Positions 54,001 through 57,000 of a stretch of 64,000 nucleotides of DNA are shown piece after piece (the first letter of the stretch is position 1; each line of letters begins with the position of its first letter). Source of the DNA: an uncultured Bacilli bacterium (GTDB lineage Bacteria > Bacillota_I > Bacilli_A > RF39 > UBA660); contig CAJTYF010000003.1 of NCBI GenBank assembly GCA_910583945.1, forward strand, positions 3,466 to 67,465. The letters run 5' to 3'. The position numbers are program-made.

Positions 54001-57000
54001 GAGGATTGGCATCAATAATGGCATTCCCATGCTTTTCAGCACGCATTCCAAAACCATCTAAAATAATTGTTAATATTTTTTTCATATTCTCACCGTTTAT
54101 TTTATTATACGCTTAAGCTTAATAAAACACAAATTATTGCTTTTTTGTACGTTCTAATCTTTCTATTTTAGAATATTTCTCTTCTAATATTTCCATACAA
54201 TAGTCTACATATTCTAAAGATTGCTCTTTGCTTCTCCAAGTGACATATCCATTATAAGTTCCAAATATATTTTGGTAATCGAAATGGGATTCATCATAAT
54301 TATAAAGTTGAAAAAATGATTTTATAAGATAGGCGGCTGCTTCCGCATTTTTATACGGATTATATTGAATGTCTTCTGTTGTAAAACCAAGCACTTGGTT
54401 TATGAGTTTATGATTTGTAATATTAATTTGAAAAAGTCCATAATCGTTTGTAGGTGATATGACTCCATTCGTGGCCCATGTTCCATCTGATTCAACGTGA
54501 CCTATTGTAAATAAAATATCATGAGAGAAACCATATTTTTCACTAATATCAAACATGAATTGTTGAAACGTTTCATCATAGATAGGAATATCATAGTACT
54601 CTTGTTTAGGTTCATAGGTTAAATAATTGATTTCATATTTAGGAAGATTTCCATTAATTTTTTCAATTTTGCTTGATTCAGTATGTACTTCTAATGCATT
54701 CCAATAATTTAATTTTATTAAAAAAATAGCACTTAGACTTGCATACAAAGTTAATCTTGTTTTTGTTATATTTCTTTTGGCTTTCATGGTTTCACTTCCT
54801 AATCTTTCATTATTTAATAGACCGACGTTCTAAATGGTACTATAATTTAGTTTTTTTGTCAAATTATACATATAAGATAAAACTGCTTTTCAAAAATGAA
54901 AGCAGTTCATCTTAACCGATTAAGAATCTTGGACGTACACCTACTCCTTGACTATAAGACGCAGCAACATATTCTCCATCTGAAATACCTGTAGCATTAA
55001 CATATGCAAACCTTGTTGAACTCACTACATTTTTTAACCAGTAGTGAAAATTGATTTTTCTATAATTATTAATAAATTCCGGTTTTAGTTGAAAAAGAGC
55101 ATACTGGCGATTATCAATTCCTGTATCGTATAAACTCGACGAACTAACATTTCCACCGTAAACATTCATTTCACTCATCAAATCAACTTTTCTTAAATAC
55201 CATTCCCATCTATCAGATGCCCCTTGAAAAACACCGCCACTTTGATTGATTGCGTTAGGGTTTATTTTAGTTGATAATAAATTCCTATATTCAAAAATAT
55301 GACTCCCAAATGTCTTTCCTATTATTCCATCTGACGAAACTAAGTTTGATAAGGTCTCTGTAACCATTTTACTTCCAGCATATCCACCTTCGGTTGTGTC
55401 CGTATCATTCATGGACGCGTTTATTAAGGGTTCCGCTGGTATTAGCGTTGCATGATGTTTTGTTAATTGCGTATCTCCTGTATACAAATAATTATCAATG
55501 TCTGCGATTAACCATGTCACATCATTTGCTATGATATAATCACCGACATAAAGGTCTTCAAAACTTCCATTACTGATTCTAATATATAAACTTCCATCTG
55601 TATAATAAGGAGTTATATCTTTTCCTCGATAAGTATTTCTATGTAACGCTTTTCCAGCTTCTATATATTTGTTGTATTCTTCTTCACTTAATCCACTTGT
55701 AAACTCGACGTTGCATTTTGATTCACTGCTGACATTGTTTAATACTAAGTTCCAATTGTTATAATCCCATTCCCCAAATGTTCCATTTGTACAATGCACA
55801 TTCGTTTTATATAACCCTCTTTCTGGAATACTTTCACTTTTTTTATCATCTACGACAACACTTAATAATTTAATATCGTAACCAAAATCGGGGATTCTTC
55901 TTTTTAATACATTAAAACTTTTCTTTTCTTCATAAAAGGAATATGTTTTATACAACGTGATACTTCCTATTATTAACAAGATTCCTACGATAAAATAAAT
56001 GATTTTTTTATTCTTTTTGTTTCTGGTAAACCTTTCTAGTTGGTTATTAGTTTCTAATAACCCCATTCTTAAATTTAATCTTTTTCATTTTCTTTTTTCC
56101 TTCCTTATTAAATTTATTTCATAACCAAACAAAGTTCTTTACCTTATTTGTAATTCAATTATAATCAATTTATTCTATTTAAACAAGAAAAAAAAATAAG
56201 TTCTTACACTTATTTAAACTCTTGTTACTTTTTTATTTAAACGTAAACTATCAGCAATGGTTGCAATAAACTCACTATTGGTAGGTTTACTTCTGTCATA
56301 ATCAACACTATGACCAAAGATTTCTTCCATTACCTCGTAATCGCCTCTTGCCCAACTTACTTCAATAGCATGCCTGATTGCCCTTTCAACACGACTTGCT
56401 GTTGTATCAAAACGACTAGCAATTTCTGGATAAATACATTTGGTAATACCACCTATAATATCGGGATTTTGATACATCATGTAAATACTTTCTCTTACAT
56501 ATTGATAACCTCTAATATGAGATGGAATTCCTAAAGAATGTAATAGTTTACTAATGGTTAATTCAATCTTATTATCTCTTTCTTCTACTAAACTCTCATC
56601 GTTATCTGATGGTGCAACAATAGCTAAAATTCTTTTTTCTAAATTTTCTAAGTTCACTGGTTTTATCATAAAGTAATCCACATCAAATTGGTTTACCATT
56701 TTAATTGTTGCTTCTTTTTTGTAGCTTGTTAAAATAATTACTTTCTTTTTGATGTCATTCTTTTCCATTTCTTCTAAGATGTTAATTCCGTCAATTTCTG
56801 GCATAATAATATCCATAATAATCAAATCAAATGTCTCGTGATTATTCAAAACATATTCTAAGCCTTCCTTACCATCATTAATTGTTTTTATTATATTTAT
56901 AACTGCGTGACTACTAAAATACTCCTTTATCTTACTACAGTTTGATGTACTATCATCAATCATAAGAACATTAATATTTTTTTTCATTATTTTCTCCTTC

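Follow-up and report, generated by a model that had tools for sequence, protein, structure and literature searches.

Two start codons ahead of a poly-G tract, and a short overlapping reading frame, in a putatively phase-variable gene family of an uncultured gut Bacilli bacterium

The DNA analyzed here is a stretch of 64,000 nucleotides (nt) of contig CAJTYF010000003.1 (assembly GCA_910583945.1, uncultured Bacilli bacterium), referred to below as the window, and the element in question is a short open reading frame (ORF) that overlaps the start of one member of a repeated gene family. The window has a GC content of 29.8% and carries housekeeping genes that include those for Spo0A, ClpC, GltX and CysS and a ribosomal protein operon; this gene set is that of a spore-forming Firmicute. 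Searches with tblastn identified five paralogs of a protein of approximately 385 amino acids (aa), dispersed between the housekeeping genes and all on the minus strand. The organism is known solely from metagenome-assembled genomes (MAGs). Identical proteins were found in mouse-gut MAGs labelled "uncultured Bacilli bacterium", and rabbit-gut MAGs hold only more distant relatives. The loci used for comparison (L numbers below; proteins have P numbers) came mostly from exact-protein look-ups of neighbouring genes and of cluster members, with at least 12 loci from a genome-collection scan and 2 from a metagenome DNA-pattern scan.

The short ORF belongs to the third paralog. The main ORF of copy 3 (54912-56066, minus strand) encodes 384 aa, is identical to P0006, and is preceded by a leader; with ATG1 included, the copy spans 54912-56088. 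Two ATG codons are located at this end of the gene. The first, ATG1 (56088-56086), opens the codons ATG AAA AAG ATT AAA TTT AAG AAT GGG GTT ATT AGA AAC TAA, and the resulting short ORF (56047-56088, minus strand; MKKIKFKNGVIRN followed by TAA, read directly from the sequence) consists of 13 sense codons and a TAA at 56049-56047, or 14 codons with the stop. The second, ATG2 (56064-56066, minus strand, also read directly), is the start of the main ORF and lies 22 nt downstream of ATG1, that is, in the +1 frame. Its G opens a contracted homopolymer tract of four Gs (G4; 56061-56064, minus strand), where the same type of leader elsewhere has G9, GGGAGGGGGG, G10 or G11. Past the ATG1 codons, the minus strand reads A-ATG-GGG-TTA-TTA-GAA-ACT-AAT-AAC, and the T of the short-ORF TAA is located 17 nt 3′ of the A of ATG2. 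The two ORFs overlap by 20 nt in copy 3, and by 26 nt in G10 alleles. A TGA that overlaps ATG1 closes the main frame 21 nt upstream of ATG2, so that ATG2 is the earliest possible start in this frame.

A previous sequence-only reading had described ATG1 as the start of a 14-codon upstream ORF in the +1 frame, with its TAA 17 nt past ATG2, and these coordinates are correct. It had also held that a strong ribosome-binding site serves ATG1 and that ATG2 has no Shine-Dalgarno (SD) sequence of its own, which duplex energies with a Firmicute anti-SD bear out. The 20 nt before ATG1, with the SD AAGGAAGG at 56099-56106 (minus strand) and a 10-nt spacer, gave -9.8 kcal/mol, as compared with a window-wide median of -9.5 kcal/mol for 54 long-ORF starts; before ATG2, the corresponding 20 nt gave -2.4 kcal/mol, close to the -2.6 kcal/mol of random 20-mers. 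The short ORF has its own ribosome-binding site, and the downstream start lacks an SD.

The order of the leader elements is common to the paralogs: promoter, SD, ATG1, seven codons, xAT-G(n) and a 9-bp hairpin. In an alignment of 15 distinct leaders from the window and related contigs, the TATAAT and the 5′ untranslated region (UTR) that follows it are invariant. The SD region and the surroundings of ATG1 are more variable, and the seven lysine-rich codons before xAT vary in sequence and are constant in length. The putative promoter of copy 3 (56158-56186, minus strand) consists of a -35 TTGTTT (56186-56181), a 17-nt spacer and a -10 TATAAT (56163-56158). A consensus promoter scan did not call this minus-strand promoter, as the -35 element matches at just 3 of 6 positions, and the putative assignment is based solely on the invariant TATAAT. 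Consensus folding of the 15 leaders also predicted a 10-bp stem-loop in the 5′ UTR (CAAAUAAGGU-AAAGA-ACUUUGUUUG; 56126-56150, minus strand). Only one-sided changes (A-U to G-U), and no compensatory changes, were observed in it among these leaders, and it stands as predicted, not proven.

The most constant part of the leader adjoins the tract. The 36 nt after the Gs (TTATTAGAAACTAATAACCAACTAGAAAGGTTTACC) are invariant, and directly after the tract is an invariant 9-bp hairpin or palindrome, GGTTATTAG-AAA-CTAATAACC (56042-56062, minus strand). This hairpin, GGUUAUUAG-AAA-CUAAUAACC, is made of the final two Gs of the tract and the first 19 of the 36 nt, and it folds at -7.7 kcal/mol (z = -5.1). 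It holds both off-frame stops, UAG in the 5′ arm (56056-56054) and UAA in the 3′ arm (56049-56047), and the short ORF of copy 3 terminates at the latter. Relative to the A of ATG2, the hairpin begins at +5 in G4 alleles and at +11 in G10 alleles.

An off-frame short ORF as such is a chance expectation in DNA of 30% GC. What goes beyond chance is the ATG kept at the edge of the tract, the constant 22-nt spacing between ATG1 and ATG2, and the 36 invariant nt after the tract across the 15 distinct leaders. The leader peptide before the tract is not conserved (MKKIKFKN, MKKFKKTN, MKTIKKTN, MKRFKKTN, MKKFKKTH), and its post-tract part occurs solely in the off frame. Rfam gave no match over the whole window at the gathering threshold, nor on the leader at E ≤ 1. 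Given the variable peptide and the lack of an Rfam match, a regulatory leader peptide and a known cis-regulatory RNA were both discarded as explanations. A dedicated regulatory upstream ORF was likewise set aside, as the short ORF appears instead to be what the SD-driven ATG1 produces whenever the tract sets it out of frame. A long-range pairing between the 5′ UTR and the coding region, seen in a single-sequence fold (z = -3.5), is absent from the alignment consensus and was not relied on.

Copy 1 (10682-11892, minus strand) shares an identical leader with copy 3 across approximately 200 nt, including a short ORF at 11851-11892 (minus strand; ATG1 at 11892, TAA at 11853-11851, ATG2 at 11870-11868 and G4 at 11868-11865). 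Despite the identical leader, 158 of 1381 aligned nt differ between the bodies of the two copies. The sequence-only reading was therefore right that the arrangement recurs in copy 1, but it missed that the main ORF there is also broken. In the body of copy 1 (10682-11870, minus strand), a 5-nt deletion in GAAGAAAAGAAAAG has left GAAGAAAAG (11735-11727), and because of this deletion the ATG2 ORF ends after 49 codons at a stop at 11723-11721. The remainder is open from an ATG at 11737 as an anchorless ORF of 351 aa that is identical to P0166. The deletion (11727-11737, minus strand) puts the ATG within TATGAAG in frame, giving "MKKSFNVL...". This N-terminus is present in three different 90% clusters and in proteins P0124, P0143, P0145, P0166 and P0167, and 5 fetched family proteins carry the copy 1 type of deletion. 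A second site of recurrent slippage may exist at (GAAAA)2; alternatively, recombination may have spread the variant.

Copy 2 (34969-36153, minus strand) has AAG+G10 (tract 36130-36121) and no ATG2; its ATG1 is in frame with a product of 394 aa, and it is the sole intact ATG1-phase copy in the window. In copy 4 (62083-63228, minus strand), ATG1 is also in frame, with AAT+G10+AG (tract 63204-63195). This copy is cut by a TGG-to-TAG nonsense change at codon 299 (62334-62332), which leaves 298 aa identical to P0149; its homology runs on in frame past the TAG to 62083, and the truncated P0149 is found on 3 contigs. Only the 3′ part of copy 5 (63355-64000, minus strand) is present before the window end cuts it, and this part is identical to residues 174-387 of P0007. 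The called N-terminus of P0007 is MGGGLLETNN, from which copy 5 is AAT+G10 in the ATG2 frame, and the copy 5 ortholog in a near-isogenic sample (L059) is likewise AAT+G10. Copy 5 of this same genome, which adjoins the G10 copy 4, has the same kind of overlapping short ORF.

The copies also recombine. Over 5.4 kb, the only differences between copy 3 and its ortholog in ERZ17762178 are 37 that fall in one 200-bp patch. The patch (copy 3 at approximately 55520-55760; L006:3401-3600) resembles copy 2 (91%) more than copy 3 (85%) and matches no paralog in the window exactly. This pattern points to segmental gene conversion between paralogs, which would give rise to mosaic variation in the ectodomain.

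In-silico translation of every leader showed that a change in tract length moves the ORF in or out of frame with its start. In leaders with AAT+G(n), ATG1 is in frame at n = 9, as in L005 and L058 (MKKIKFKNGGGLLE..., 406 aa); ATG2 is in frame at n = 4, 7 and 10 (MGLLE, MGGLLE and MGGGLLE); and neither start is in frame at n = 8 or 11 (G11 in L025). The deduced N-terminal peptides are (M)GLLETNNQLER for ATG2 of copy 3, (M)GGGLLETNNQLER for ATG2 of a G10 allele, ...GGGLLETNNQLK for ATG1 of copy 2, and MKKIKFKNGLLETNN for a trans-frame product. The sequence-only reading had taken four Gs as a low or OFF state and the G10 copies as ON. As the state is set by the reading frame and not by the G count, this is wrong as stated: G4, G7 and G10 share the ATG2 frame, copy 5 is a G10 copy in that frame, and the supposedly ON copy 4 carries a nonsense codon that had been overlooked. 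Copies 2 and 4 are in the ATG1 frame for local reasons, namely the missing T in copy 2 (AAG+G10) and the two extra bases in copy 4 (G10+AG).

Tract length differs between assemblies at several sites. The copy 4 ortholog in ERZ17813367 (L059) has G9+AG where the window has G10+AG, with 0 mismatches in 1320 nt. The copy 2 ortholog in the same sample (L012) has G11 in place of G10, with 2 mismatches, and is out of frame. At a site downstream of FtsH (L045 and L054), CAT+G7 was found in 3 assemblies and CAT+G10 in 4; the two alleles differ by 9 mismatches and one 3-nt gap, and the ATG2 frame is kept. Downstream of an identical Spo0A, 2 assemblies have AAT+G10 (ATG2 frame, 376 aa) and 1 has AAT+G9 (ATG1 frame, 383 aa), although these alleles are not near-identical (51 mismatches in 1320 nt in addition to the 1-nt tract gap). 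Overall, the tracts of related loci range from G7 to G11, and the called N-termini shift with the tract, with protein lengths changing from 394 to 364 aa, from 298 to 260 aa, and from 376 to 383 aa. In the 64 kb of the window there are only two G/C runs of 6 or more, and both are family tracts (the G10 tracts of copies 2 and 4). A homopolymer of approximately 7 or more in the 5′ coding region, as slipped-strand phase variation requires, is present in the family but not in copies 3 and 1, which have only G4. These observations suggest that the paralogs constitute a poly-G phase-variable gene family that switches by slipped-strand changes in tract length.

Tracts of G6 to G10 are also present elsewhere in the 5′ coding region of distant relatives with a single ATG (L014-L016). 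In two of these from rabbit gut (L015:1340-1620 and L016:1340-1620), a G10 or G7 lies in the transmembrane (TM) segment or in a different N-terminal extension, and it is out of frame with the single ATG in the reference MAGs. The different tract positions make poly-G switching a trait of the family, in which it seems to have originated more than once. In the second paralog downstream of Spo0A in L003 (4877-5051), ATG1 has become ACG and the tract is TAT+G11+A in ATG1 phase; this gene appears to have been switched off by loss of the start codon, not by the tract.

A run of four Gs is not expected to be hypermutable, and an unchanged G4 fits this expectation. The same AAT+GGGG was found twice in the window, in GCA_948656655.1, and in ERZ17762178, which derives from a separate run (ERR3199594). 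Homopolymers are error-prone, and many contigs break within the repeated leader, so that the G4 could have been a sequencing or assembly error in a longer run of Gs. The identical sequence in three separate assemblies makes such an error extremely improbable, and it was rejected.

The distribution of reading frames bears most directly on whether ATG2 is used. Among the family proteins that were fetched, 57 start at ATG2 (M-G(1-3)-LL[ER]TNN) and 4 are in the ATG1 frame. According to their glycine codons, the 57 comprise 49 G10, 6 G7, 1 G4 and 1 interrupted allele, where the class of 49 includes the interrupted GGGAGGGGGG allele, which likewise encodes MGGG. This allele encodes MGGGLLRTNN and is present in four 90% clusters. 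At most 15 family proteins start at an internal Met of the main frame, as would be expected if neither start is in frame or if the contig is truncated. Assembled copies of the family are most often in the ATG2 frame, and this argues against that frame being a simple OFF state. Every contracted or interrupted allele that was seen as DNA (G4, G7 and GGGAGGGGGG) has a full-length ORF in the ATG2 frame. The AT before the tract persists in three versions of the ATG1-frame codon, AAT (Asn), CAT (His) and TAT (Tyr), and the spacing between ATG1 and ATG2 is 22 nt in every leader that contains the T. ATG2 is absent, for want of the T, in copy 2 and L012 (AAG+G10/11) and in L026.

If ATG1 were the sole working start, and ATG2 a coincidental xAT beside a G tract, then the G4 copies would be locked OFF and on the way to becoming pseudogenes, perhaps serving only as donors for conversion. 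Several observations fit this account. ATG2 has no SD, the hairpin begins at +5, and a ribosome at ATG1 would occlude an ATG2 that is only 22 nt away. Copy 1, with the same leader, is already frameshifted, copy 4 has a nonsense codon, gene conversion between paralogs is evident, and the majority of copies in known contingency families are OFF at a given moment. However, two equivalent OFF frames should be about equally common, and the ATG2 frame was found in 57 proteins as compared with at most 15 for the third frame. Nor would silence explain why variants at one locus differ by exactly 3 nt (G7 and G10), why the contracted and interrupted alleles all fall in the ATG2 frame with full-length ORFs, or why the AT ahead of the tract is kept behind three different first bases. 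We therefore consider a silent allele fairly unlikely. That the ATG2 frame is commoner than the other non-ATG1 frame, that tract length varies in 3-nt steps, that the stabilized alleles are in ATG2 phase and that the AT is conserved together lead us to infer that ATG2 is a working start.

With no SD at ATG2 and no other start in the main frame, the main ORF of copy 3 can be reached only by an unconventional route. The explanation that we favor, with somewhat more than even confidence, is that the short ORF is the out-of-frame remnant of the first of two starts, and that ribosomes arriving from ATG1 feed the SD-less ATG2. Under this model, slipped-strand changes in the tract would choose between ATG1 in frame, ATG2 in frame, or neither. 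In copies 3 and 1 the tract would have contracted to G4, which is too short to slip often, so that these copies would be effectively fixed in the ATG2 frame. Ribosomes would load at the SD and ATG1 and translate 13-15 codons (13 in G4), and this translation would melt the hairpin that starts at +5 (G4) or +11 (G10) of the main ORF. They would then terminate at the UAA 17-23 nt beyond ATG2, and a fraction would re-initiate backwards at the nearest upstream ATG, which is ATG2. The expected outcome is a lower, non-zero and constitutive level of the surface protein from the ATG2 frame, with copy 1 being additionally inactivated by its 5-nt deletion.

Coupling or reinitiation after the short ORF is plausible as the most natural route to ATG2. 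Coupling is known for downstream genes with intrinsically weak ribosome affinity, and backward reinitiation has been described in phage fr at overlaps of -38 and -50 nt (PMC12548453). The 20-nt overlap of the copy 3 ORFs is outside the common -1/-4 class and within this phage fr range. In the coat-lysis arrangement of the RNA phages fr and MS2, a well-translated upstream ORF likewise ends beyond a poor start, ribosomes move back to the nearest start, and structure silences independent initiation. The paralogs differ from these phages in having an overlap of 20 nt (G4) to 26 nt (G10) and an upstream ORF of just 13-15 codons. As the efficiency of reinitiation falls with distance, output from ATG2 should be below that from ATG1, and it is plausible that copy 3 is expressed at a lower level than an allele with ATG1 in frame.

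ATG2 could instead be used independently, with the 30S subunit binding the A/U-rich leader or waiting in standby at the upstream SD, in which case the ATG1 ORF would be irrelevant or would compete. Nearly all of the 20 nt before ATG2 are A or U, and the predicted folds leave this segment unpaired; A/U-rich enhancers can promote initiation (PMC12548453). Against this, approximately 33 nt separate the SD from ATG2 downstream of it, a distance too great for normal positioning; a ribosome on ATG2 would have a footprint that overlaps the strong ATG1 site; and de novo initiation would be impeded by the hairpin at +5 to +25. The SD and ATG1 are moreover retained in alleles that are fixed in the ATG2 frame. 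Direct initiation is for these reasons judged improbable.

Recoding would dispense with a second start altogether. In this case, ribosomes from ATG1 would shift +1 on A-AUG-GGG-U, through re-pairing of tRNA-Gly on GGGG, or RNA polymerase would slip on the longer G tracts. Four or more Gs do permit +1 re-pairing, the hairpin lies within 2 nt, and long homopolymers allow transcriptional slippage. However, the codon after GGG in the ATG1 frame is GUU and is neither slow nor rare, downstream hairpins stimulate -1 and not +1 shifts, and G4 is too short for polymerase slippage. Recoding also leaves the conserved ATG unexplained, and we regard it as very improbable.

Feeding of ATG2 by ribosomes from ATG1 thus remains our preferred reading. 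It can be extended to a three-level dial in which expression is high from ATG1, low and constitutive from ATG2 (fed by backward re-initiation) or off, and in which populations are mostly low and a contraction from G10 through G7 to G4, or an interruption of the tract, hard-wires the low state. We offer this extension tentatively, as a possibility that we regard as less likely than not.

Several points weigh against the use of ATG2 as proposed here. Our case for it comes only from frame frequencies and conservation, and the frame counts are not phylogenetically independent, as the members are related and the leaders have been spread by recombination; copies 1 and 3, with their identical 200 nt, show that leaders are homogenized in this way. 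The predominance of G10 could reflect no more than the mutational mode. In Firmicutes, initiation is generally regarded as strongly SD-dependent, and in a contingency family the majority of paralogs are often OFF. Covariation supports neither hairpin, as the columns of the 15-leader alignment do not vary and none can be scored. Purifying selection on the G4 allele was also considered (copy 3 and the ERZ17762178 ortholog; ratio of nonsynonymous to synonymous substitution rates, dN/dS, of 0.16) and rejected, as all 37 differences lie in the one conversion tract and the value is uninformative on expression. In addition, the 20-nt overlap is far from the -1/-4 geometry, and coupling efficiency declines with distance (PMC12548453). 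With non-independent counts, a possible G10 mutational mode and a failed selection test, the silent-allele reading keeps substantial weight.

No family in Pfam or NCBIfam was found for the protein of approximately 385 aa. Its AlphaFold model (mean pLDDT 81.7) has a predicted layout of a disordered cytoplasmic tail, a TM helix at residues 18-45, a small beta domain and a large C-terminal domain. In copy 3, a putatively membrane-anchored protein, the latter is modelled as an enlarged C-type-lectin-like ectodomain. The C-terminal module is widespread, with approximately 2000 clusters at 50% identity (E ≤ 1e-10), and is placed at the C-terminus of proteins of 270-1500 aa. The predicted ectodomain fold matches that of the N-terminal C-type-lectin-like domain of the Thomasclavelia ramosa immunoglobulin A (IgA) peptidase (PDB 9qa6), although the paralogs are small, N-terminally membrane-anchored and without a peptidase domain. 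The gene product is most likely a surface-exposed binding protein. The isoforms that start at ATG1 and at ATG2 both retain the lysine-rich segment before the TM helix, and subfamilies without a G tract start just ahead of this segment (MKLEKFTKNKK...). The 7-residue extension from ATG1 is therefore dispensable.

The closest known mechanism is that of licA (lic1) of Haemophilus influenzae, in which a (CAAT)n repeat is preceded by start codons in two frames and the repeat number picks the start (PMC2212159). As in licA, the repeat here is just inside the 5′ end of the ORF, starts are located upstream in two of the three frames, and the third frame is OFF. The family likewise has at least two starts in different frames 5′ of the repeat, each of which gives a full-length ORF at a given n, with one frame giving none. 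It differs from licA in that the repeat is a homopolymer, the host is a low-GC Firmicute (an uncultured gut Bacilli), and the first base of the tract forms part of the second start, which has no SD and is overlapped by the short ORF of the first start. Here, moreover, an invariant hairpin holds both off-frame stops. By analogy, the locus would be a two-start contingency locus with a mechanism like that of licA, from which the two-start design with an SD-less, tract-built start differs.

The family also resembles the poly-G/C contingency genes of Campylobacter, Neisseria and Helicobacter and the G-tract switch of the Bifidobacterium breve pilus (PMC6321876, PMC8355987, PMC9187656, PMC11868660). 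The likeness extends to intragenic 5′ G tracts of approximately 8-11 nt, genes for surface structures, tract-length polymorphism among near-identical genomes, and ON/OFF switching by frameshift. Such genes are described as two-state with one start, in contrast to the at least 5 paralogs in 64 kb found here, each with its own conserved leader; copy 3, with 4 Gs, also differs in not being itself hypermutable. A limited search of the searchable literature found no description of this family or leader.

If ATG2 is used, the leader would constitute a graded high/low/off phase switch, not a binary one, in a Gram-positive gut commensal, and a natural example of backward reinitiation at an SD-less start. 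The two-start design, together with the apparent natural preference for the SD-less start, is the notable part of this arrangement, and the short ORF would be a by-product of phase variation. Independently of this, the genes form a multi-copy family of putative surface proteins that is unannotated in Bacilli of the mouse and rabbit gut, and its members recombine with one another. The match of the predicted ectodomain to the lectin-like domain of the IgA peptidase makes them plausible determinants of host or phage interaction.

There is also a consequence for genome surveys. Metagenome contigs often end inside the shared promoter and leader after Spo0A or the cold-shock gene (L007-L011, L036-L044). 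The shared leader is thus an assembly-breaking repeat, and the family copy number is probably underestimated in MAGs. With three N-termini called according to tract length and assemblies broken at the leader, the family will be miscounted in pangenome and MAG analyses.

In 8 other assemblies with an identical ribosomal protein L17 (L027-L034), L17 is followed by a helix-turn-helix (HTH) gene (160 aa, opposite strand) and ClpC, with no paralog between L17 and ClpC, so that copy 2 is a strain-specific insertion or duplication. The HTH gene near copy 2 is split in the window into ORFs at 36414-36620 and 36671-36898 (plus strand). An agr-like quorum-sensing locus (12482-15268) is located directly upstream of the cold-shock gene ahead of copy 1 and consists of AgrB (12482-13078, plus strand), a histidine kinase (13279-14553, minus strand) and a LytTR response regulator (14534-15268, minus strand); in related contigs, a 39-aa ORF is called between AgrB and the kinase. 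Near copy 3, downstream of the phosphoglycerate mutase gene, is an ORF of 464 aa (51173-52567, minus strand) with a cadherin-like beta-sandwich domain, which is possibly another surface protein.

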